Below, piece after piece: positions 1 through 30,294 of a stretch of 44,452 nucleotides of DNA. This DNA is from an uncultured Bacilli bacterium. Its GTDB lineage: Bacteria > Bacillota_I > Bacilli_A > RF39 > UBA660. The stretch covers positions 1 through 44,452 of the forward strand of contig CALVVK010000001.1 of the NCBI GenBank assembly GCA_944363825.1, read 5' to 3'. The notes below the pieces were generated by a model. It did no database searches. It saw only the letters and a program-made list of their open reading frames with translations, and had not been told where the DNA came from. How positions within the stretch are numbered: the stretch's first letter is position 1; each line of letters opens with the position of its first letter. The position numbers and the translations under genes are program-made.

Positions 1-1323
1 GATGATGGAGCATATCAAGAAAGTAATGTATTTAGTAATTTAAATGATAATACCGAATATACAATAAATGTTAAAGCAGTAGATACAGAAGGTCGAGAAT
101 CAAATCCATATGAACTACAAGTAACAACAGATGAATATATTTTACCAACAATAAGTAATGTAACAGCAAGTAGTACATCAGATAGTATTACATTAAATGT
201 AACTGCTAGTGGTGGAACAGGAAGTATTGTAACATATCATTACTCAAAAGATGATGGGTTAAATTATGAAACAAGCAGTAGTCCAAATTACACATTTAAT
301 GACTTAACAAGTGATGCCACATTTTATTTAAAAGTTTATGTAACTGATAGTAATGGTAGAACTAGTGGGGAATATAGTACAAGTATAGCAACGGAACCAA
401 ATATAACTTATTTGGCTGATTATATCAAGGATACAGTTTATACAGGAACTGATGGCGAAAATGGATTATATTATCATGATGGAGTAGGAACATACACCAA
501 TGCGGCCCAGGAAGCAGGAGATAATTCCTACAGATATGCAGGTGCTAATCCCAATAATTATGTTTGCTTTGCAAGTGATGCAATGACATGTCCGAATGAT
601 AATTTGTACCGAATAATTGGGGTGTTTGGTGATCAAGTGAAATTAATCAAATATGATTATGCAACAAATACACATTTAGGTAGTAATGGGTCGTATGATT
701 CAACAGTGGCATCAAGAAATTATAGTACATACAAGGGAACTTTGAGTACATTATATCTGTATTCCTGGAATAGTAGCACAAGTACAAACGTATGGAGTGG
801 AAGTAATTTAAATACGGTAAATTTAAATACAAATTATATAAATTACTTAAATGGAATAAACTCCAAGTGGAATGACATGATAGAAACGACAAACTGGCAA
901 GTCGGAGGGAATGCATATCAAAATATCTATAATGTAACAGTAAAAAATACATATGCAAATGAAATAGTGAGTCCCGCAACAAACACAACATATAGTGCCA
1001 AAATAGGCTTAATGTATGTGAGTGATTATGGTTATGCAGCAAGTCCAAGTGCATGGACATTAGCAATGAGTGCTTATAATAATAGTACTGCAATTAGTAA
1101 TAACTGGATGTATATGGGAGGCTTTGATTGGACAATTTCCCGTAGATCGAACGATACGTACAATGCATTTATCGTTTATGATGCTGGCTATGTGAACAGC
1201 TACATCGGCGACAGCGTTTCCGCCGGCTTCGGCGTTCGTCCTACATTTTATCTGAAGTCTAATGTTGCAATAACCTCTGGTGATGGCTCGGCTTCAAATC
1301 CTTACAAAGTAGAATTATCTTAG
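1..1323 (+). CDS. Cell-surface protein, 5'-truncated by the window edge: Fn3-like repeats followed by a C-terminal lectin-like domain ending in ...GVRPTFYL. Paralog of 26199..27866.
   Basis: Frame 1 is open from base 1; the track's TTG 'start' at 412 is internal. Two Fn3-like repeats are visible (NVTASSTSDSITLNV...YTFNDLTSDATFYLKVYVTDSNG). The stretch 415-650 is roughly 85-90% identical at the nucleotide level to 26812-27047. Confidence 0.75.
   Translation, partial: DDGAYQESNVFSNLNDNTEYTINVKAVDTEGRESNPYELQVTTDEYILPTISNVTASSTSDSITLNVTASGGTGSIVTYHYSKDDGLNYETSSSPNYTFNDLTSDATFYLKVYVTDSNGRTSGEYSTSIATEPNITYLADYIKDTVYTGTDGENGLYYHDGVGTYTNAAQEAGDNSYRYAGANPNNYVCFASDAMTCPNDNLYRIIGVFGDQVKLIKYDYATNTHLGSNGSYDSTVASRNYSTYKGTLSTLYLYSWNSSTSTNVWSGSNLNTVNLNTNYINYLNGINSKWNDMIETTNWQVGGNAYQNIYNVTVKNTYANEIVSPATNTTYSAKIGLMYVSDYGYAASPSAWTLAMSAYNNSTAISNNWMYMGGFDWTISRRSNDTYNAFIVYDAGYVNSYIGDSVSAGFGVRPTFYLKSNVAITSGDGSASNPYKVELS
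1138..1242 (+). other. GC-rich NNC/NNT-codon block: candidate DGR variable region, copy A
   Basis: About 51% G+C by hand count inside an AT-rich gene. Runs of NNC codons are present (AAC AGC TAC ATC GGC GAC AGC ... TCC GCC GGC TTC GGC). The 3' tail 1219-1242 contains no adenine. Confidence 0.5.
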
Positions 1324-1336
1324 TAGTATAGCCTAA

Positions 1337-1364
1337 AACTTTTACGGTTACAACCGTAAAAGTT
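1337..1364. terminator. Hairpin between convergent genes (11-bp perfect stem)
   Basis: AACTTTTACGG-ttacaa-CCGTAAAAGTT. The T-run is on the minus-strand reading, serving trmB. Confidence 0.6.
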
Positions 1365-1394
1365 GAGAAATATATATAATAAAAAAATGAATTT

Positions 1395-2033
1395 TTAATT
1401 TTTAAAAGATGCATCTAAATAATAAATAGGACGGTTTTCTTTAAAATATTGTTTTTCAAAGTCAGTCATAATATTGGAAATGTTTCGCTCATCATGGTGA
1501 AGATCTAAACTAACAATGTCAAATACATACCAATATTGGGATAATGTTTCTAAGGAATAAGCAAATAAACCTTTGTTATCTGTTTTTAAAATAATATGTT
1601 TATCTTTTTTAAAAATACGGTCATATAATTTTAAATAGGATTCATGAGTGAACCTATTTTTTTCATCCCTTTTTTTGGGCCAAGGTTCGGAGAATGTTAA
1701 ATAAATAGTATCTATTTCTTTTCCAAATATATTTATTATATTACGGGCATCATCTTTGATTAATTTTAAATTAGTTATATTTTCTTTTGCTAGTTTTAAA
1801 GCGCATGTTGCGAGTTGGGAAGCATTTAATTCTAAACCAATAAAGTTGTATTCTGGATATTTTTTGGCCATATTGATGATAAATTCGCCGCGGCCTGTTC
1901 CTAGTTCTAAATAAATAGGCTTGTTGTTATTAAAATAATCATGCCATTTTCCTTTATATTTAGTGGGATTACTGACATAATATTTACTATTATTTAAGAT
2001 ATTATCAGCATTTTTTATAACATTATATTCCAT
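1395..2033 (-). CDS. trmB: tRNA (guanine46-N7)-methyltransferase
   Basis: SAM-binding motif YLELGTGRGEFIINMAKKYPEYNFIGLE. Length and layout are typical of TrmB. Confidence 0.9.
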   Translation of the reverse strand: MEYNVIKNADNILNNSKYYVSNPTKYKGKWHDYFNNNKPIYLELGTGRGEFIINMAKKYPEYNFIGLELNASQLATCALKLAKENITNLKLIKDDARNIINIFGKEIDTIYLTFSEPWPKKRDEKNRFTHESYLKLYDRIFKKDKHIILKTDNKGLFAYSLETLSQYWYVFDIVSLDLHHDERNISNIMTDFEKQYFKENRPIYYLDASFKN

Positions 2034-2114
2034 TTTATCACATCCACTAATATTTTATCATGTCTCATTGTTTTTTTAAAGGGATTATGATAATATAAGG
2101 ATTAGGTGATACAC

Positions 2115-3395
2115 ATGTTTGTTGACGAATTAACTATTAAATTAATGGCAGGGGCTGGTGGTGATGGTTGTACATCATTCAGACGGGAAAAATATGTTCC
2201 GATGGGTGGCCCTGATGGTGGTAATGGCGGTCGGGGGGCTAGTATTATTTTTAAAGTTGATGCTAGTTTAAAAACATTAATTGATTTAAGTTATAGAAAA
2301 ATAATTAAAGGTAATAAGGGGGAAAATGGCAAAGGCTCTAACAAATATGGGAAGAATGCTGAAGATATAATTATCAATGTTCCTGCTGGGACAACTATTT
2401 ATAATGCGGAAACTAATGAAGTAATTGCGGATTTAGTCGAATATAATGAGGAAGTTGTGGTTGCTCGCGGGGGCCGGGGTGGTAAAGGTAATAAGTCTTT
2501 TGCAACTCATGATATTCCAGCGCCGAAATTTAGTGAAAAAGGGGAACCGGGAGAAGAATTAACAGTTCGTTTGGAATTAAAAGTTTTAGCGGATGTAGGT
2601 TTAATCGGGATGCCTAGTGTTGGTAAGTCGACGATTATATCTTTAATTTCTGCGGCAAAACCGAAGATTGCAAGTTATCACTTTACAACCTTGTCTCCCA
2701 ATTTAGGAGTTGTGAAATTGCCAAGTGGTGATGCCTTTGTTATGGCTGATTTGCCAGGCTTAATCGAAGGGGCAAGTGAAGGTGTTGGTTTAGGGATAAA
2801 CTTTTTAAGACATGCCATGCGTACTAAAATTTTGGCCCATGTTATCGATATGGGGGCTAGTGAAGGAAGAGATCCAATTTTAGATTATCAAACAATTCGC
2901 GGGGAATTAGAAAATTATAATGAGATATTAAAAAATAAAAAGGAAATAATTGCTGCCAATAAGATGGATTTACCGGGATCAATAGAGAACTTAAAGAAAT
3001 TTAAGGAAAAATTCCCAAATTTAGAAGTAATTGAAATAAGTTGTATGAATAATACTGGTTTAGACACATTAATTATGACTTTAGCCCAAGAACTTAAAAA
3101 TATTCCGGAAGTAAAATTGTATCAAGATGCAGATTATAAATTATATAAATTTGAAGATACTAAACCTTATAGTATTAAAAGAGATGGTAATATTTGGATA
3201 GTTAGTGGGAAGGAAATTGAAACATTACTTAAGATGACTAAGTTTGAAGAAGATGAAGGGGCTTTAAGATTTGCCCGAAAGTTTAAAGGTATGGGTATTG
3301 AAGATGAATTAGAACGGCTGGGGGCTAAACCTGGTGATGAAGTTCAAATATTAGATTATATGTTTATATTCAAAGATGATGAATATGATAAATGA
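2115..3395 (+). CDS. obg: GTPase Obg/CgtA
   Basis: MFVDELTIKLMAGAGGDGCTSFRREKYVPMGGPDGGNGGRGASIIF, P-loop GMPSVGKST and a C-terminal OCT domain. I prefer the ATG at 2115 (AGGTGA RBS) over the GTG at 2106. Confidence 0.95.
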   Translation: MFVDELTIKLMAGAGGDGCTSFRREKYVPMGGPDGGNGGRGASIIFKVDASLKTLIDLSYRKIIKGNKGENGKGSNKYGKNAEDIIINVPAGTTIYNAETNEVIADLVEYNEEVVVARGGRGGKGNKSFATHDIPAPKFSEKGEPGEELTVRLELKVLADVGLIGMPSVGKSTIISLISAAKPKIASYHFTTLSPNLGVVKLPSGDAFVMADLPGLIEGASEGVGLGINFLRHAMRTKILAHVIDMGASEGRDPILDYQTIRGELENYNEILKNKKEIIAANKMDLPGSIENLKKFKEKFPNLEVIEISCMNNTGLDTLIMTLAQELKNIPEVKLYQDADYKLYKFEDTKPYSIKRDGNIWIVSGKEIETLLKMTKFEEDEGALRFARKFKGMGIEDELERLGAKPGDEVQILDYMFIFKDDEYDK

Positions 3396-3413
3396 TTTAT
3401 TAGCAATTGATAA

Positions 3414-3446
3414 TTTCTAGGAAAAATACATATTTTTTCCTAGAAA
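3414..3446. repeat. CTAG-centred palindrome, copy 1 (13-bp perfect arms, 7-nt spacer)
   Basis: TTTCTAGGAAAAA-tacatat-TTTTTCCTAGAAA. The same arms recur at 16339..16375. No flanking T-run on either strand. Confidence 0.8.
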
Positions 3447-3448
3447 AA

Positions 3449-3790
3449 CTAAATTAAATTTAATACGTCACCAATTTTAAGATTAATACTAGTATTATTG
3501 GGTAAAACTAAAATACTGGTATTTTCTTTTTCTTCGTAAGTATTTATTATTTTAAATTTAGGGATATTACGATAAATATGGGTAATGGCATTTTTAGAAT
3601 TAATAACTAAATAATCATTTTTGTTACTTAGGAAGGTATTAAAGATAGTTTTATTTTTATATAATTTAATTTCTTTATTACGATATTTAATTTTATCAAT
3701 AAAGTTATTTATTAGATATACTTCTTCTAATTTGGCATTTATTAAAATATTCATACAAAATAATATGTTTAATAATTGCAAATAATGCAA
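3449..3790 (-). CDS. Hypothetical protein; weakly supported ORF
   Basis: 113-codon ORF with a TTG start at 3790 or an ATG at 3754. No clear RBS. Asn/Ile/Lys-rich with no recognisable motif. Confidence 0.35.
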   Translation of the reverse strand: MHYLQLLNILFCMNILINAKLEEVYLINNFIDKIKYRNKEIKLYKNKTIFNTFLSNKNDYLVINSKNAITHIYRNIPKFKIINTYEEKENTSILVLPNNTSINLKIGDVLNLI

Positions 3791-5002: not shown

Positions 5003-5422
5003 ATGAAAAAACGTGGGTTTACTTTAGTAGAATTAATGGTCGTAATAGTAATTATTGCCATTATATCGGCGATTGGTTTTGGGGGAATTACTTTATTACA
5101 ACAAAATGTTAAAAAAGGTTTATGGGATGGTAAGGTTGATTTGATACTAAGTGGGGCCGAGTTATATGGGGAAGATAATAAAAATCAGCTTACTAATAGT
5201 TGTACTATAAATGGGGAAGAAAAAAATGCTTGTTTAACAGTTACTGTTCAAGATTTAATTGATACTAATTATGTGCCAACTGATGAAGAAGATAACGAAG
5301 GTAATAAAGTTATTATTAATGAATCGTTAAATGAAGATGATGCTAATTATTATGCTAATGATTTAAAAGTTTATATATATTTAGAAAATAATATTGTTTA
5401 TGCATTTTTAGAAGAAAGTTAA
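5003..5422 (+). CDS. Type IV pilin / ComGC-like pseudopilin with a class III signal peptide
   Basis: MKKRG|FTLVELMVVIVIIAIISAI is a canonical prepilin cleavage and methylation motif. Confidence 0.85.
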   Translation: MKKRGFTLVELMVVIVIIAIISAIGFGGITLLQQNVKKGLWDGKVDLILSGAELYGEDNKNQLTNSCTINGEEKNACLTVTVQDLIDTNYVPTDEEDNEGNKVIINESLNEDDANYYANDLKVYIYLENNIVYAFLEES

Positions 5423-16160: not shown

Positions 16161-16338
16161 TAGTTTATCGAATATGGGGGTGAGAATATAAATGCAAGTT
16201 TGAATTTAATGCTATAGTAGGTTGACGATTATCCGAAATTGGTCTATGGAGAGTTTAAAGGACTCTGTGAAGTAGAAAAATTCTTGTTATTCAAGTAAGT
16301 TTGACTTTTTATTTTGTGGGGTAACATTATGTATTGAT

Positions 16339-16375
16339 TTTTTCTAGGAAAAATGTTATTATTTTCCTAGAAAAA
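16339..16375. repeat. CTAG-centred palindrome, copy 2 (14-bp arms, 9-nt spacer), abutting the abiEi RBS
   Basis: TTTTTCTAGGAAAA-atgttatta-TTTTCCTAGAAAAA. It shares its arms with 3414..3446. Confidence 0.8.
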
Positions 16376-16388
16376 GGAAATGGTGTGT

Positions 16389-16985
16389 ATGAATAACTAT
16401 GATAAAATTTTGAATTATGCTAAAGAAAATAATGGATACATTACAGCAAGTGAAGCTGAAAGATTAGTTATTAATAGTAGTTCGTTTTTAAGTAATTTAG
16501 TAGTAAACAAAAAGTTGGAAAAAGTTGGAGCGGGTGTTTATAAATTACCTGATTATCCGATTGATAATTTTTATATTTTATCCAAATGCAGTAAAAATAT
16601 GTGTTATTCTCATGCTACGGCTTTATATTTACACAATATGTCTGATAGAATTCCGTTAGTTTATGATGTTACTGTTTCATATAATTATAGTGGAAATTTA
16701 TTGAATAATGAAAATGTAACTTTGCACTATGTTAAAGATGAGATTTTTGAACTAGGGATTATTGATATTAAAACTGTTAATAATTTAACAGTTAAATGTT
16801 ATGATCTTGAAAGAACTATCTGTGATATTATTAAAGATAAAAATTGTATGGATAAAGAAATTTATTCAAAAGCCTTAAAAGAATATGCTAAACTTAAGGA
16901 TAAAGATATTTTGAAATTGGTTAAATATGCTAGATTGTTAAATATTGAAAAAGAAGTTGTTGAGTTAATGGAGGTGTTATTATAA
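16389..16985 (+). CDS. abiEi: AbiEi-family antitoxin / transcriptional regulator (type IV TA)
   Basis: The N-terminal wHTH (ILNYAKENNGYITASEAERL) and the size are typical. It is immediately followed by the AbiEii gene, with TAA and ATG abutting. Confidence 0.75.
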   Translation: MNNYDKILNYAKENNGYITASEAERLVINSSSFLSNLVVNKKLEKVGAGVYKLPDYPIDNFYILSKCSKNMCYSHATALYLHNMSDRIPLVYDVTVSYNYSGNLLNNENVTLHYVKDEIFELGIIDIKTVNNLTVKCYDLERTICDIIKDKNCMDKEIYSKALKEYAKLKDKDILKLVKYARLLNIEKEVVELMEVLL

Positions 16986-17825
16986 ATGAATTCAGACAAA
17001 TTAAATGCTATTATTAAGAAAAAAACTAATGGTAACAATACTTTGGCACATCATCTTCATCAGATGTTTTTCTTTGAACATGTATTGATGAGATTAGAAA
17101 AGAGTAAATATAAAGATAATATTATTTTAAAGGGTGGTGTTTTACTTTCCTCAATTATAGGGGAGGATTTGCGAACTACTAAAGATATGGATACTACTTT
17201 AAAGAGTTTACCGTTAAATATGGATTCTATTAGAAATATCTTTGAAGAAATATTATCTATTGATATTAATGATAATGTAAAGTTTGAAATTGTTAGTATT
17301 AAAGATATTAGATTGGATAGTTTATATGGTGGTTTTAGAATAAATGTTAAAGGTACTTTTGATAAAATAAGAACTAATTTTTTTATTGAGATAACTACTG
17401 GTGATGTAATTACACCAAGAGAGATAGAGTATCAATATAATTCTATATTTGAAGATAAAAAAATAAATATTATGGCATATACTGTTGAAACAGTAATTGC
17501 TGAAAAGTTTAATAGTATTATTAGTAGAAATATAACTTCTACAAGGGCTAAAGACTTTTATGATGTATATATGCTATTGAACGAACATAAAAATAGTATT
17601 AATAATAAAAACTTAGCTATCGCGATAGAAAATACTTTTAAAAATAGAAATACAGAGTTTAATATTGATAATTTTAAAGAAATTGTAGAAATGATGAAAG
17701 ATAGTAATATTTTAAGAAAAGTATTTGCTGATTATCAAAGTAAATTAGAATATACTAAAGAAGTAAGTTTTGATGATACAATTAACTCAGTTAATGAACT
17801 AATCAGTATATTAGAAACTCAATGA
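16986..17825 (+). CDS. abiEii: AbiEii / DUF1814 nucleotidyltransferase toxin
   Basis: LKGGVLLS...TKDMDT nucleotidyltransferase motif, 279 aa, and the operon partner of AbiEi. Confidence 0.8.
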   Translation: MNSDKLNAIIKKKTNGNNTLAHHLHQMFFFEHVLMRLEKSKYKDNIILKGGVLLSSIIGEDLRTTKDMDTTLKSLPLNMDSIRNIFEEILSIDINDNVKFEIVSIKDIRLDSLYGGFRINVKGTFDKIRTNFFIEITTGDVITPREIEYQYNSIFEDKKINIMAYTVETVIAEKFNSIISRNITSTRAKDFYDVYMLLNEHKNSINNKNLAIAIENTFKNRNTEFNIDNFKEIVEMMKDSNILRKVFADYQSKLEYTKEVSFDDTINSVNELISILETQ

Positions 17826-26198: not shown

Positions 26199-27866
26199 AT
26201 GAAATTTAAGAGAATTATCATAGTTGTTATTTTTATTCTTGGCTTTATCAGTGGCTATGGGATAGTTAATATAAATAAAGATAGGGCAGTAATTAGTGAT
26301 AATTATAAGATAGCAAGTAAAAATAATGCCTTAACGATGATGTTAGAAACAGATATCGATTCTAATGAATATGAAGTTGCAACTTCTATTGAGTGGCCAA
26401 CATCTGGCTATATATTTAATGCGGAGATGTCCGCATGTGAACGTGGCGGCACACTTTCCTGGGATAGTGAGAATAATCGAGTTGTAATGGCATCAGGAAG
26501 TGCCGATAAGTGCTATGTGTATTTCGATCGGTATACAACAGTTTCAATTACTAATGTAACAGCCAGCAATATAACAAATAGTAGTATTACCTTAATGGTG
26601 GAAGCAACTGTTTTTGATAGTCCTATAACTAATTATTATTATAGTAAAGATAATGGTTTAAGTTATGAAGAAAGTACTAGTAATACTTATACGTTTAGTG
26701 GCTTAGAACAGGGAGCAGAATATAATTTTAAAGTTTATGCTGTCGATAGTAATGGGGTAAGTTCCAATATTTATTCATTACGGGCATCTACGAAAGATAT
26801 CATTTATTTAGCCGATTATATCAAAGATACGGTATATACAGGTACAGATGGGGATAATGGATTATATTACCATGACGGATCAGGTTCATACACTAATGCT
26901 GCACAGGAAGCAGGAGATAATTCCTACAGATATGCAGGTGCTAATCCAAATAATTATGTTTGCTTTGCCAGTGATGCAGCAAGTTGTCCAAATGATAATT
27001 TATATCGGATAATAGGAGTATTTGGAGATCAAGTAAAATTAATAAAAAATACAAGTTTGGGAAATTATTATTGGAGCGGATCAAGTTCTAATCGGAGAAA
27101 TACATGGAGTAATAGTACATTAAATACAGGAACATTAAATGGAACATATTTAAACGGACTTGGAACAACATGGAGTGCTATGATTGAAACGACAACATGG
27201 AAAGTAGGGGGAGGAAATTATAGTCGTTTAAGAGATAGTAGAGTAAAAACAGCATATAACTATGAATTAGGAAATAACAGTTCAAGTACAACATATAATG
27301 CAAAAATAGGGTTAATGTATGTAAGTGATTATGGATATGCAGCAAGTCCAGCAAACTGGAGAACAACATTAATTAATTATGATAATGATACAAATCGCAA
27401 TAATAACTGGATGTATATTGGAGGATATGACTGGACAATTTCCCGCTATTCGGACAATGCGACTAGTGCGTTCGTCGTGAATAATTCAGGCAGTGTGAGC
27501 AACCTCTACGTCTACTACAACTTCGCCGACGGCTACGGCCTCGGCGTGCGCCCGTCCTTTTATCTTTATCCTTGGGTTGGCATTGAAAGTGGTAATGGCT
27601 CAGTAGAAAGTCCCTATCGGTTAACACTACCTGAATTAGTGGAGTTTTCTTTTGCTGGTACAACCTATTATTTAGAAGATGGTATGACTTGGGAAGAGTG
27701 GGTTAATAGTATTTATAATGTCGATGGTCTTGTAGTATCGGAAGGTAATATATTTAATTCAACGCTTACTAGTAAACTATCGATAACGGGAAGTGGTGAG
27801 TTTATTAAGGCAACTGATGTAATAGATTATAATAATAGTTCTACTTGGTATTGGTATAATATTTAA
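26199..27866 (+). CDS. Membrane-anchored surface protein: N-terminal TM, one Fn3-like domain, a lectin-like domain ending ...GVRPSFYL, and an ~85-aa C-terminal extension. Candidate DGR target.
   Basis: The ATG at 26199 follows an AGGAG RBS (MKFKRIIIVVIFILGFISGYG). Fn3 motif: ITNVTASNITNSSITLMV...YNFKVYAVDSNG. Paralogous to 1..1323. Confidence 0.85.
   Translation: MKFKRIIIVVIFILGFISGYGIVNINKDRAVISDNYKIASKNNALTMMLETDIDSNEYEVATSIEWPTSGYIFNAEMSACERGGTLSWDSENNRVVMASGSADKCYVYFDRYTTVSITNVTASNITNSSITLMVEATVFDSPITNYYYSKDNGLSYEESTSNTYTFSGLEQGAEYNFKVYAVDSNGVSSNIYSLRASTKDIIYLADYIKDTVYTGTDGDNGLYYHDGSGSYTNAAQEAGDNSYRYAGANPNNYVCFASDAASCPNDNLYRIIGVFGDQVKLIKNTSLGNYYWSGSSSNRRNTWSNSTLNTGTLNGTYLNGLGTTWSAMIETTTWKVGGGNYSRLRDSRVKTAYNYELGNNSSSTTYNAKIGLMYVSDYGYAASPANWRTTLINYDNDTNRNNNWMYIGGYDWTISRYSDNATSAFVVNNSGSVSNLYVYYNFADGYGLGVRPSFYLYPWVGIESGNGSVESPYRLTLPELVEFSFAGTTYYLEDGMTWEEWVNSIYNVDGLVVSEGNIFNSTLTSKLSITGSGEFIKATDVIDYNNSSTWYWYNI
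27441..27557 (+). other. GC-rich NNC/NNT-codon block: candidate DGR variable region, copy B, with an adenine-free IMH-like 3' end (27537-27557)
   Basis: About 58% G+C by hand count. Sixteen consecutive codons ending in C span 27498-27545. The 3' end GGCCTCGGCGTGCGCCCGTCC contains no A. Confidence 0.55.
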
Positions 27867-27892
27867 TTAGTATTGTAAAATTTCTTGTATTA

Positions 27893-27921
27893 TATTGTAA
27901 AAATTTAGTAAATTTGATATA
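27893..27921 (+). promoter_or_regulatory. Promoter of the pilC-pilD operon
   Basis: TTGTAA, 17 nt, TGaTATACT (extended -10). It overlaps a 9-bp inverted repeat AATTTAGTA/TACTAAATT. Confidence 0.5.
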
Positions 27922-27949
27922 CTAAATTATAGTAAAGGAAGGTAGCAAA

Positions 27950-29524
27950 ATGCAAGAAACTTTAAATGAGACTCCTAAAAATAATGGCATTTTAGATATA
28001 TTAAAGACTCCATTTATAGTTTTATACAATATCATTGTTTATGCAGGTGTTGGTATTAAGGCTACATTCTTTGATTTATGGGTAAATTTATATAATGGGG
28101 CTAGTTATCAAGTAGATAAAACTTATCGGCATACGAAACAACAATTCATGGAAGAAGAAGATAAGATCTATGAAATGACGAAAAAGAAACCGAAGAAAGA
28201 AAAAGTATATAAATATAGTGCTAAAGTATTGGCCAAACTCGAAGAAGAAAAACGCGAATTAATGGTTGATTTGCAAAATGCTGGGGCGACGAGAAGTAAG
28301 ACACCTCATACATATCTTTATAAAGTTAAAGATACGCATGGTAGAATAATTAAAGGAACTATGAATGGTTTAAGTAAATTAGATATTAATTCTTATTTAC
28401 TTAGTGAAGGTTATGAAGTATATAGTATTAAAACTTCACCTTTTATAGATTTTGTTTATAAAGATTCTAGTTTTTTTGGTAAAAAAATGTCTAATAAGGA
28501 CTTAATATTTTGGCTTACCCAATTATCTACTTATATTAAAGCAGGATTAACATTAAATGAGTCGATTAAAATATTAACTACCCAAATGAAAGGGAATAAA
28601 GCTAGAACGACGGCTTTTAAAGCAATTTCTTATGAACTTACTTTGGGTGAATCTTTTTCTAGTGCTTTAGAAAAACAAGGTTCGATGTTTCCAGCATTAT
28701 TGATTAATATGATTAAAGCAGCTGAGGCCAGTGGGACATTAGTAGAAACGTTAGATGATATGGCAAATTATTACACGGAAATAAATGAAACTCATCGCCA
28801 AATGATAAGTGCGATGACTTATCCAACAATAATTACGGTCTTTGCTATTGGTGTTGTCATATTCATACTTATTTATGTGGTACCACAATTTACGGAAATC
28901 TATGCGACAAATAATACAGAAATAACCGGAATAACTAAAATTGTTGTTGATGCTAGTGCTTTTATTCAACGGGATTATATGTTAATTATAGGTATTATTT
29001 TAGGGACTGTTGTAACAGTAATGGTTTTATATAAAACTGTTAAAGCGTTTAAAACTGCTGTTCAAATATTTTTAATGCATATTCCAGTTATTAAAAATAT
29101 AATTATTTATAATGAATTAACGGTATTTTCGAAAACATTTGCATCTTTACTTCGTAATAATGTATTTATAACGGATAGTATGGATATTTTGAGTAGAATT
29201 ACAAATAATGAAATATATAGAGCAATTATGTATAAGACAATTAATAATATAATTAAAGGGGAAAAAATATCAGAAGCATTTAAAGATCACTGGGCTATAC
29301 CAAATGTTGCTTATTATATGATTGTTACAGGGGAATCAACTGGTGATCTTGCTAATATGATGCAAAAGGTAAGCGAATATTATCAATTATTGCATAAAAA
29401 TATTATTAATAACTTAAAATCGTTTATTGAACCAATCATGATTTCCTTTTTGGCGGTGATTGTTGGAATAATAATAATTGCTGTTATTGGGCCAATGTTT
29501 GATATGTATAATCAAATTGCTTAG
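27950..29524 (+). CDS. Type IV pilus/competence platform protein (GspF/PilC/ComGB family) with an ~120-aa N-terminal extension
   Basis: Two T2SSF repeats are present. The usual N-terminal motif (YLYKVKDTHGRIIKGTMNG) begins only at about residue 122. The 27950 start has an AAGGAAGG RBS. Confidence 0.85.
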   Translation: MQETLNETPKNNGILDILKTPFIVLYNIIVYAGVGIKATFFDLWVNLYNGASYQVDKTYRHTKQQFMEEEDKIYEMTKKKPKKEKVYKYSAKVLAKLEEEKRELMVDLQNAGATRSKTPHTYLYKVKDTHGRIIKGTMNGLSKLDINSYLLSEGYEVYSIKTSPFIDFVYKDSSFFGKKMSNKDLIFWLTQLSTYIKAGLTLNESIKILTTQMKGNKARTTAFKAISYELTLGESFSSALEKQGSMFPALLINMIKAAEASGTLVETLDDMANYYTEINETHRQMISAMTYPTIITVFAIGVVIFILIYVVPQFTEIYATNNTEITGITKIVVDASAFIQRDYMLIIGIILGTVVTVMVLYKTVKAFKTAVQIFLMHIPVIKNIIIYNELTVFSKTFASLLRNNVFITDSMDILSRITNNEIYRAIMYKTINNIIKGEKISEAFKDHWAIPNVAYYMIVTGESTGDLANMMQKVSEYYQLLHKNIINNLKSFIEPIMISFLAVIVGIIIIAVIGPMFDMYNQIA

Positions 29525-29538
29525 AATTGGGGTTTTTT

Positions 29539-30294
29539 ATGGCAGTATTATTGTTTTTCATCGGTGCAATTTTGGGTTCTTTTTACCTTGTAATAGGAAC
29601 AAGATTACCCAAGGGTGAGGATGTATTATTTTCTAGAAGTAAATGTGATAACTGTGGTCATGTATTAAAATGGTATAATTTAATACCTTTATTTTCATAT
29701 GTCATTCAACGGGGTAAATGTACTTTTTGTCATAAAAAAATTGCTAGTGAGCACTTCATTGTGGAATTAGCAACCGGTTTGTTATTTGTTTTTACTTATT
29801 ATATTTTTCCCTCTGGTTATTATTTTTATGGTGGTCTAATTATTAGTTCATTATTAATTATTATTTTTGTTAGTGATTTTAAATATATGGTTATATTAGA
29901 TTCTCCGTTAATTGTAACAGGGATACTATTTATTATCTTAAAATTAATATATTTTGGCTTTAAAGCCACATTAAGTAGTTTTTTATCTGGTATTGCTTTA
30001 TTTTTGGTTATGCTTTTATTGTTTCAAGTCGGCAAATTACTCTTCAAAAAAGAGGCTTTGGGTGGGGGAGATATTAAACTTTCCTTTATTATTGGGTTAA
30101 TTTTAGATTTTAATTTAGGTCTCACGGCTTTAGTTTTGTCGACATTTGTTGCCTTGCCATATGCTTTAGCATCTTTAGAAATTAAAAAAAATAATGAATT
30201 TCCGTACGGGCCATTTCTCGCCGGTTCATTATTTATAGTATTTTATAATTATGATAAATTTTTATTATTACTAGAATATTTATTTGCTTTTTAA
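29539..30294 (+). CDS. Prepilin peptidase (A24 family, PilD/ComC)
   Basis: Zinc-binding N-terminal motif CDNCGHVLKWYNLIPLFSYVIQRGKCTFC and catalytic GGGDIKL. The start is the ATG at 29539 or the TTG at 29527. Confidence 0.88.
   Translation: MAVLLFFIGAILGSFYLVIGTRLPKGEDVLFSRSKCDNCGHVLKWYNLIPLFSYVIQRGKCTFCHKKIASEHFIVELATGLLFVFTYYIFPSGYYFYGGLIISSLLIIIFVSDFKYMVILDSPLIVTGILFIILKLIYFGFKATLSSFLSGIALFLVMLLLFQVGKLLFKKEALGGGDIKLSFIIGLILDFNLGLTALVLSTFVALPYALASLEIKKNNEFPYGPFLAGSLFIVFYNYDKFLLLLEYLFAF

Follow-up and report, generated by a model that had tools for sequence, protein, structure and literature searches.

A likely former DGR variable region in a lectin-like surface protein of an uncultured gut bacterium

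A G+C-rich block at positions 1138-1242 of a 44,452-nt stretch of an uncultured Bacilli contig (CALVVK010000001.1, hereafter the window) is probably the variable region (VR) at the C-terminal tip of a DUF6273-like lectin domain, written by a diversity-generating retroelement (DGR) from a template repeat (TR) of the type recovered at the metagenome locus L211 and then no longer overwritten, and its counterpart in a paralogous gene of the window probably represents a recently written VR. We refer to the two blocks, and to their genes, as copy A and copy B, respectively. In established DGR biology, the TR is transcribed and a reverse transcriptase (RT) copies the TR RNA while misreading adenines; the block is a further example of this already known system and leaves its known mechanism unchanged. 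Most probably, copy A once served as a DGR variable region but is not maintained now; we call it a former rather than a live target mainly because GGCGTTCGTCCT replaces GGCGTGCGCCCG, with three mismatches, at its 3' end.

The copy A gene (1..1323, forward strand), according to the ORF list and translation, retains the 3'-terminal 440 codons for a large surface protein with FN3 and lectin-like parts; its reading frame is open at the 5' end of the contig, stops at 1323, and contains 1138-1242 in frame. In another contig (L235), which is 100% identical to window positions 1-3667 and extends the gene 5', the gene has at least 840 codons. Its fn3 matches are weak. The DUF6273-like C-type-lectin-like domain spans 412..1323 (+; LADYIKD ... 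GVRPTFYL ... stop) and aligns with the copy B domain, while the VR block itself (1135..1242, +) contains 1138-1242 and is codon-for-codon homologous to verified DGR VRs and TRs. No homolog with >67% identity to copy A was found by homolog search.

A preliminary description of this DNA had drawn attention to about 51% G+C in a 105-nt block of the 5'-truncated paralog, and we obtained 51.4%, as compared with 29.5% for the window. Among 11,800 sliding 35-codon windows from 38 contig ORFs (mean GC3 0.215, sd 0.09), copy B ranked first (GC3 0.80) and copy A second (0.60), and C3 reached 0.49 in the copy A block and 0.63 in copy B against 0.09 contig-wide. Amino-acid content alone was ruled out as the source of this G+C richness because the anomaly sits at synonymous third positions. 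The copy A block has zero K, E, Q, M, or W residues and the codon repertoire of adenine mutagenesis (NNC/NNT, no stops); across 151 homologs these residues account for 2.9% of the block vs 12.7% of the upstream sequence, and for ~1% of family blocks with GC3 >=0.5 vs ~8% of the rest. The adenine-free tail described at 1219-1242 is real, though its length was understated (24 nt), as the run covers 29 nt (1214-1242).

Copy B is encoded on the forward strand by a gene that is full length from the ATG at 26199 (26199..27866 in the ORF list) and corresponds to the database protein P0001, whose called start adds 27 N-terminal residues; look-ups of the exact copy B sequence from other start codons yielded no database entry. 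It has an fn3 match at 6e-9, and genes for T2SSF (1.4e-49) and a prepilin peptidase (Peptidase_A24) lie directly downstream. Its VR, our comparison block, occupies 27438..27554 (+; previously given as 27441-27557) and ends in an intact GC-rich boundary element GGCGTGCGCCCG at 27543..27554 (+), identical to that of the TR and the L211 cis VR. When copy B is compared with L002, an ortholog at 97% ANI, identity returns sharply at this 3' boundary element, and TR/VR homology in cis pairs stops at the same GGCGTGCGCCCG element. The AlphaFold model of the copy B domain (pLDDT 95.2, pTM 0.93) had as its best structural matches in Foldseek DUF6273 phage proteins (E 6e-10 to 1e-5, TM 0.4-0.5) and the T. 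ramosa IgA peptidase, with 9qa6 as the top PDB match (E 1.5e-8). The predicted structure has fold-level similarity to DUF6273 at moderate TM, with the variable segment C-terminal. The Pfam DUF6273 model (PF19789) gave no match to either window domain at E up to 10, and the family member P0093 matches it at 1.3e-8 (35.3 bits; cut-off 23.5).

The proposal that these blocks are DGR-type variable regions is supported by eight related metagenome loci that have a VR/TR pair with an adjoining MutS-like gene. Their order is target-VR, TR, MutS-like gene, followed on contigs that extend far enough by Avd and RT (Avd in L167, L203, and L179; full RT in L167), with the TR located ~370 nt downstream of the VR and VR/TR mismatches almost solely at adenines. 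One common TR accompanies different VRs in L160, L172, and L179. The L211 cassette consists of target-VR, TR, MutS_I (1.8e-5), bAvd (3.7e-4), and RVT_1 (5.8e-21), and the RT motif of the L211-L214 cassette is IGNMTSQ...YMDD. The TR types recovered were those of L211, L215, L216, L167/L170, L160/L172/L179, L148, L203, and L207. Within the 44 kb window, no TR, RT, Avd, or MutS-like gene was found. An IUPAC pattern built from copy B, allowing adenine or the VR base, had zero matches in IMG/VR and matched copy B alone in the window, even with three mismatches. Scanning viral sequences for the 3' element returned only chance matches in high-G+C phages, and chance matches in high-G+C genomes likewise predominated among the matches listed in a genome-contig scan with the pattern CGGCNNNGGCGTGCGCCCGTCC. 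By protein, viral relatives were limited to a single marginal locus (L130).

Against the 99-nt TR of L211 (37 adenine sites and 62 other sites scored), the L211 cis VR has mismatches at 20/37 adenine and 0/62 other sites, copy B at 17/37 adenine and 1/62 non-adenine sites with 18 additional nt (p=4e-8), and copy A at 17/37 adenine and 10/62 non-adenine sites with 9 additional nt (p=0.002). With this independent template, the earlier suggestion that the two copies differ mainly at template adenines held: they differ at 26/37 template-adenine sites and 11/62 others (Fisher p=3e-7), such that substitutions tabulated by template base are uneven, with adenine sites enriched. A protein-guided codon alignment likewise reproduced the codon pairs that had been reported to differ in positions 1-2 only (AAC/GAC, GAT/AAT, AAT/AGT, ATC/GTC, TAT/AAT, GAT/AAT, TAT/AGT, AAC/AGC, and AGC/AAC), together with the synonymous differences CGT/CGC, TTT/TTC, and GTT/GTG and the 3-codon difference in length. 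That codons identical in both copies lack adenine is also correct except for one TAC/TAC pair that appears with MAFFT, gap placement being decisive.

The non-adenine changes of copy A point to an older, decayed target, which was one of the two possibilities raised previously, the other being a target of a different template. Copy A fits the TR at 52 of 62 non-adenine sites (copy B at 61 of 62), and 8 of its 10 non-adenine changes are synonymous third-position changes, its bases at non-adenine template positions including the codons CGT, GCA, TTT, GTT, and CCT. Three of the 10 lie inside the degenerate 3' GC-rich boundary element (1231..1242, +), where copy A has GGCGTTCGTCCT and the TR and live VRs have GGCGTGCGCCCG, each a synonymous change to T. 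All changes at template G/C sites (8/8) go to A or T; as 74% of non-adenine template sites are already G or C, the direction of this drift is only weakly significant (p ~0.04). Copy A has in common with the L211 TR the TR-specific codons AGA and ACG. It combines an adenine bias with departures that go beyond "minor exceptions" to A-only mismatches.

On the reading that we favor, a chromosomal DGR outside the window, adjoining a third paralog and with the order TR-MSL-Avd-RT, would diversify multi-copy FN3-lectin surface proteins, its cDNA overwriting the VR starting at the GC-rich 3' element GGCGTGCGCCCG. Copy A would have been written from an L211-type template until overwriting ceased, probably through decay of the 3' element to GGCGTTCGTCCT, and would afterwards have gained ordinary, mostly synonymous, substitutions at positions that the template would hold fixed. 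We infer from this that copy A is inactive now, with the loss of its 3' element as the likely cause. Copy B, with its 3' element intact, would be a remote target that carries a recently written VR.

That the two copies cannot both be fresh products of one template, as the preliminary description had argued, is supported by their unequal insertions and by codon 4 of copy B, which fits a TR variant. At TR nt 11, copy B and L239, the sister-strain allele of the copy A locus, have the same non-adenine mismatch, as a TR with AAT at codon 4 would give; therefore, more than one template version has existed. VR lengths across paralogs are 33, 34, 36, and 39 codons, and the in-frame insertions in remote VRs relative to the TR (3, 9, and 18 nt) all fall at the (AAC)4-GGC tract, TR nt 81-84, with repeat units that differ at adenine-derived positions only. 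In copy A, the best single-insertion alignment places the 9-nt GTTTCCGCC (1216..1224, +) after TR nt 81 of the 99-nt TR, in this tract; in copy B the insertion is the 18-nt TTCGCCGACGGCTACGGC (27522..27539, +), made of NNC and NNC-GGC units. More tentatively, and with considerable doubt on our part, this DGR lineage might vary loop length as well, with slippage of the RT or template RNA on the (AAC)4 / AAC-GGC repeats adding NNC and NNC-GGC units, copy B and L239 being live remote targets on pilus-associated adhesins, and copy A having been switched off by decay of the 3' priming element.

Several samples suggest a link between the L211 cassette and the organism. The exact RpoD of the window occurs in ERZ24773341, ERZ28614620, and ERZ28614461 on contigs that match the window at 99.94-99.97% identity, and these are three of the four samples holding the L211-type RT. 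Of the four samples in which such 99.94-99.97%-identical contigs were demonstrated, three contained the L211-L214 cassette, with matching coverage. For example, coverages in ERZ24773341 were 4.24 for rpoD, 4.53 for pilC, 4.73 for copy A, and 4.57 for the DGR contig. Sample co-occurrence and coverage, rather than physical linkage, thus suggest that the L211 cassette belongs to the genome of the window. No variation was seen in the copy A block, which was 100% identical in three further fully spanning samples (L235, L237, and L238; L236 covers it only from 1166), nor in the copy B block in two further samples (L227 and L228), nor in the L211-type cis VR (L211 = L213). This cross-sample comparison is low in power because the contigs are near-clonal (overall identity 99.9-100%) and represent consensus assemblies with ~3-5x coverage, and since the cis VR is invariant too, inactivity of copy A is indistinguishable here from general quiescence or clonality. 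Among more distant relatives, a single TR is paired with many VRs.

Alternatively, copy A might be a live remote target of a second TR elsewhere, whose scaffold codons would end in T/A and whose AAC tract would be longer; we consider this unlikely. A separate TR with T-ending codons would look like decay, the mismatch at TR nt 11 in copy B and L239 (consistent with AAT at codon 4 of a variant TR) and the differing VR lengths of the paralogs are compatible with it, and multi-target and remote-target DGRs are documented (PMC5758913). However, every recovered TR type keeps scaffold codons ending in G/C and a 3' element rich in G/C, with none resembling GGCGTTCGTCCT, and the departures of copy A resemble synonymous drift under protein constraint; moreover, its AGA and ACG codons are L211-specific, which indicates the same template lineage. 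Less probable again is that the writing of copy A took place elsewhere and that recombination with a paralog or allele of a related strain or species brought the block into this genome in a decayed state. Alleles in the family are mosaic, the copy A locus of the sister strain holds a quite different allele (L239, with a fresh-looking VR, a hairpin, and 72% identity to copy A), and the copy B locus is polymorphic as well, with a different gene upstream of pilC in L232. Such import would alter the place of decay but not the identity of the block, and since copy A has L211-type template codons, its source would be the same DGR lineage even if imported.

The involvement of any retroelement could also be questioned, the blocks being instead loops under diversifying selection in fast-evolving, recombining adhesin paralogs, with their G+C derived from amino-acid content or GC-biased gene conversion. 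In the 97%-ANI ortholog, divergence extends beyond the block to the entire lectin domain (identity of 80-87% for 26800-27400), with mosaic alleles, third-position changes, and an 18-nt indel; the zero sample-to-sample variation would fit as well. We regard this as highly improbable, and it is strongly disfavored by the data: selection on the protein cannot account for the match of copy B to a non-coding TR at 61/62 non-adenine sites, including synonymous ones, against a gene-to-gene identity of only ~76%; gene conversion would homogenize adenine sites too, yet these differ; and the contrast between 26/37 and 11/62, together with the scarcity of K/E/Q/M/W in high-GC3 blocks, is specific to NNC/NNT rewriting.

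The mechanistic paradigm for DGRs is the Mtd system of Bordetella phage BPP-1, in which mutagenesis is adenine-specific, TR codons are AAC/AAT, the lectin fold tolerates variation, and TR/VR homology stops at a G/C-only element that marks the 3' end of the VR. The family described here resembles it in its adenine-specific mismatches, AAC/AAT TR codons, putative G/C-only 3' boundary element, and lectin fold, but a downstream hairpin occurs in some members only. DUF6273 itself has been described as a DGR target domain whose C-terminus holds the VR (PMC10743442, PMC11792537, bioRxiv 10.1101/2024.10.15.618418). In common with the DUF6273 targets of gut Firmicutes phages reported there (tentaclins, Mtd-like proteins, and a Faecalibacterium prophage), our proteins have a lectin-like fold whose C-terminal VR is closely followed by a conserved xRP motif, attached FN3/Ig domains, two or more targets per element, and target genes retained in the absence of the DGR. 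Unlike them, they are encoded on the chromosome and are cell-surface proteins with a membrane segment at the N-terminus rather than phage tail or head proteins, one is encoded directly upstream of type IV pilus / T2SS-type genes, and the Pfam DUF6273 model misses the window's own domain. MSL-type (architecture D) and remote-target DGRs, such as those of Legionella and Treponema denticola (Wu et al. 2018, PMC5758913) share with the L211-type cassette the components TR, small MutS_I-like gene, Avd, and RT, a chromosomal-looking rather than phage context, and extra VRs on other contigs that fit the TR by A-to-N changes. In contrast to those systems, remote VRs here have in-frame insertions of 3, 9, and 18 nt at the (AAC)4-GGC tract, and copy A, with 10 non-adenine changes, lies beyond a definition of only A-to-N changes with minor exceptions.

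Together, these comparisons place in an uncultured gut bacterium of low G+C a chromosomal MutS-like-type DGR that probably writes several large surface proteins of the FN3-lectin family. The target gene by itself is enough to recognize a DGR VR, and to judge roughly whether it is fresh or decaying, by a GC3/C3 spike, the lack of K/E/Q/M/W, and scaffold codons in common with the templates of relatives. As a marker of target competence, we considered a GC-rich hairpin ~39 nt downstream of the xRP codon, which L211, L148, L239, and some others have but copies A and B lack; it was rejected as non-discriminating because it is missing from several verified cis targets. The cis VR (0/62), copy B (1/62), and copy A (10/62, with a broken 3' element) form a natural decay series that is usable for finding which sequence features keep a remote target competent.

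The block at 1138-1242 lies in frame within an open reading frame that runs from the 5' edge of the window to a stop at 1323 (the 5'-truncated paralog, hereafter copy A), and its counterpart (27438-27554) lies in the full-length paralog at 26199-27866 (copy B). The observation at 1138-1242 holds up, and the pattern is highly non-random: G+C reaches 51.4% in the block versus 29.5% for the contig, the NNC runs reported in the preliminary description are present, and the adenine-free tail is real and longer than the 24 nt described, spanning 1214-1242. A protein-guided codon alignment reproduced the codon pairs listed earlier for the two copies, along with their synonymous T/C and T/G differences and 3-codon length difference. 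Across 11,800 windows of 35 codons slid along 38 ORFs, the share of third positions being G or C (GC3; mean 0.215, sd 0.09) ranked first in copy B (0.80) and second in copy A (0.60), while third-position C reached 0.63 and 0.49, respectively, versus 0.09 overall, i.e., the composition anomaly of both blocks is located at synonymous sites. The interpretation as a variable region (VR) of a diversity-generating retroelement (DGR), with copy A the older target, is supported, and the two copies are a further example of already known systems, the nearest being DGRs targeting DUF6273 lectin-like domains and DGRs of the MutS-like type with remote targets (PMC5758913).

No template-like repeat was found in the window by sensitive blastn, by an “adenine-or-VR-base” pattern (3 mismatches allowed) or by a search with the 3' end of the template repeat (TR), nor did tblastn with related reverse transcriptase (RT), Avd, and MutS-like proteins detect RT or Avd there; the retroelement that wrote copies A and B is located outside the window. 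Using the RT of L167, a metagenome locus of the same protein family, as the query, we recovered 2637 relatives, including P0272 on contigs L211-L214, which come from the sample series (BRZ_*, ONAT22-1) that also yielded the window's near-identical contigs. Contig L211 carries the 3' end of a third paralog from this family (1-651; ~76% nucleotide identity to copy A and to copy B) with an adjoining, or cis, VR (457-555), a 99-nt TR with 37 adenines (871-969), a MutS_I-like gene (1134-1511; 1.8e-5), a bAvd-like gene (1495-1851; 3.7e-4, under the Pfam cut-off), and an RVT_1 gene (1826-2920; 5.8e-21).

Against this TR, the cis VR mismatched at 20/37 adenine and 0/62 non-adenine sites, with no insertion (Fisher p 3.7e-11), and copy B at 17/37 and 1/62, with 18 nt added after TR nucleotide 84 (p 4e-8). 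Copy A mismatched at 17/37 and 10/62 (+9 nt after nucleotide 81; p 0.002), and L239, the allele that the sister strain has at the copy A locus (VR on the reverse strand, within a 79-aa gene fragment at 1006-1245), at 14/37 and 2/62 (+3 nt after nucleotide 84; p 1.1e-5). With the L211 TR as reference, the earlier claim that the copies differ mainly at template adenines held (26/37 adenine sites versus 11/62 others, p=3e-7), and other TR types fitted copy B far more poorly (5-16 non-adenine mismatches). The window's exact RpoD occurred on contigs 99.94-99.97% identical to the window in ERZ24773341, ERZ28614620, ERZ28614461, and ERZ28614742, and three of the four samples with L211-type RT (ERZ24773341, ERZ28614461, ERZ28614620, and ERZ24773310) coincide with these. 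Within ERZ24773341, assembler coverage was 4.24 for the rpoD contig, 4.53 for the pilC contig, 4.73 for the copy A contig, and 4.57 for the DGR contig. We strongly infer, from sample co-occurrence and coverage rather than linkage, that the L211 cassette belongs to the window's genome.

Copy B is a remote, recently written target. Its sole non-adenine mismatch falls at TR nucleotide 11 (AGA in the TR, TAT in copy B) and is shared by L239, which has GAT at this codon 4; a variant of the template carrying AAT at this codon, as several related TRs do, would account for both. All three remote-VR insertions sit at the (AAC)4-GGC tract (27522-27539 in copy B, 1216-1224 in copy A, and 3 nt in L239), are in frame, and are built of NNC or NNC-GGC units: copy B reads GAC GGC / TAC GGC / CTC GGC, for example, and copy A GCC GGC / TTC GGC. 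Because these repeated units vary solely at adenine-derived positions, later DNA slippage is disfavored, and the sequences suggest that length was altered at the level of template or cDNA, via slippage or a longer TR variant, a modestly interesting side issue.

Copy A was apparently written from the L211 template lineage as well, since it shares AGA at codon 4 and ACG at codon 8, both specific to the L211 template. Eight of its ten non-adenine departures are at third codon positions and all synonymous (CGC>CGT twice, GCG>GCA, TTC>TTT, GTG>GTT twice, CCG>CCT, and a T>C within AAT -> TAC), and two change the amino acid (GAC>AAC and GTC>GGC). Changes at G/C template sites all ran toward A or T (8/8), a bias that is marginally significant (p~0.04) on small numbers. 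Three of the ten fall within the 12-nt G/C-rich element that ends TR/VR homology (GGCGTGCGCCCG -> GGCGTTCGTCCT), whose G/C-rich version is kept in every TR recovered; in the Bordetella phage paradigm, retrohoming requires the corresponding 3' element. Most simply, copy A would have lost competence as a retrohoming target and would now be drifting to the genome's A+T-rich codon usage, with its protein scaffold still under selection. The suggestion of an older or decayed target is supported by the 10/62 non-adenine mismatches, mostly synonymous and three within the 3' element, and copy A is probably a DGR-written VR whose maintenance has ended.

Copies A and B are members of a very large family (at least 8000 candidates in each of two homolog searches) whose proteins combine a membrane segment at the N-terminus with a cysteine-containing domain, FN3 repeats, and a ~270-residue domain ending in WTISR...AF.V...G.V....V....GVRPxFYL. 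The predicted structure of the copy B domain (pLDDT 95.2, pTM 0.93) matched best to gut-phage DUF6273 proteins (E 6e-10 to 1e-5) and to the Thomasclavelia ramosa IgA peptidase (9qa6, E 1.5e-8); the Pfam DUF6273 model hit some family members (P0093, 1.3e-8) and neither window domain. DUF6273 is a C-type-lectin-like domain and DGR target with its VR at the C-terminus (PMC10743442, PMC11792537, bioRxiv 10.1101/2024.10.15.618418). Among 151 homologs, K/E/Q/M/W made up 2.9% of residues between WTIS and xRP versus 12.7% in the upstream 200 residues, and across 61 distinct blocks this content anticorrelated with GC3 (rho -0.65), being ~1% where GC3 was >=0.5, the class that includes copy A, and ~8% in the remaining blocks.

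A metagenome scan with the family alignment gave 79 loci. Directly 3' of its family gene, L167 has a 101-nt repeat pair (offset 376 nt) whose downstream copy is adenine-rich (22 adenine-site mismatches versus 1 other), and it encodes a DGR-type RT by motif scan (IGNMTSQ...YMDD). Seven further loci share this layout of VR, TR ~370 nt downstream, and MutS-like gene; Avd is also present in L203 and L179, and in most of the seven the RT lies beyond the contig end. One identical TR occurs in L160, L172, and L179 with VRs that differ at adenine sites, and VRs on other contigs fit it with 0 (L188) or 1 (L190) non-adenine mismatches. Since one TR goes with differing VRs mismatched at adenine sites, actively diversified DGR targets exist within the family. 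Contigs L199 and L170 are syntenic, sharing the same low-GC3 paralog, which is followed after ~6.2-6.5 kb by a high-GC3 VR gene; L170 continues 3' of the VR into a TR and the start of a MutS-like gene before ending, whereas over 9 kb L199 has no DGR cassette, although the VR of L199 still fits the L170 TR (2 non-adenine mismatches). The cassette seems to have been gained, lost, or relocated. Separately, a G/C-rich perfect 6-7 bp hairpin at L211 ~594-608 (ACTGGCAGCGCCAGT), ~39 nt 3' of the xRP codon and in G(T/S)GSAS codons, recurs in L148, L163, L154, L151, L140, and L239; some cis and some remote targets carry it, and it is missing from copies A and B and from the verified cis targets L160, L167, L179, L203, and L207.

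Population variability, proposed as a check on each copy, revealed no diversification, with low power given low-coverage consensus assemblies of contigs 99.9-100% identical. The copy A block was 100% identical in three further fully spanning samples (L235, L237, and L238; L236 overlaps it from 1166 only), the copy B block was unchanged in two (L228 and L227, the latter being the L001 contig), and neither the cis VR (L211 versus L213) nor the L002-type ortholog (three assemblies) varied. Between strains, the copy B ortholog in two strains at 97% ANI differs over the whole lectin domain, most in the block (72-74% identity), and the sister strain has a wholly different allele at the copy A locus; hence, allele replacement also shapes these loci. 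The pilC gene of ERZ28613860 (L232) matches the window at 99.3% identity, and the DNA upstream of it has no copy B match and encodes an unrelated ORF (L232 1-330 versus 27500-27840), so the copy B locus shows presence/absence or replacement polymorphism. Several independent strain assemblies break just before the copy B VR or ~130-300 nt past it (the P0003 contig; L230, L231, and L232 contig starts at window ~27687-27839), which could stem from VR micro-heterogeneity or simply from paralog repeats 72-85% identical.

The window otherwise encodes housekeeping genes (obg, ruvA, ppdK, comEA/comEC, holA, uvrC, dnaG, rpoD, mnmA, pyrG, and xerD) and pilus-type components: a T2SSF (PilC-like) gene at 27950-29524, directly 3' of copy B, then a prepilin peptidase (29527-30294; whole region 26199-30294), and, at 5003-5422, a prepilin carrying an N-methylation motif. 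A type IV pilus-like or competence-like apparatus may display the diversified lectin protein or act together with it. Amid the housekeeping genes lies an AbiEi-like/AbiEii (PF08843, E 1.8e-37) toxin-antitoxin pair (16380-17825), also present in the 97%-ANI strain L002. A 56-nt repeat, 77% identical between 3399-3454 and 16326-16381 and containing the palindrome TTTCTAGGAAAAA...TTTTTCCTAGAAA, is probably a shared terminator-like element.
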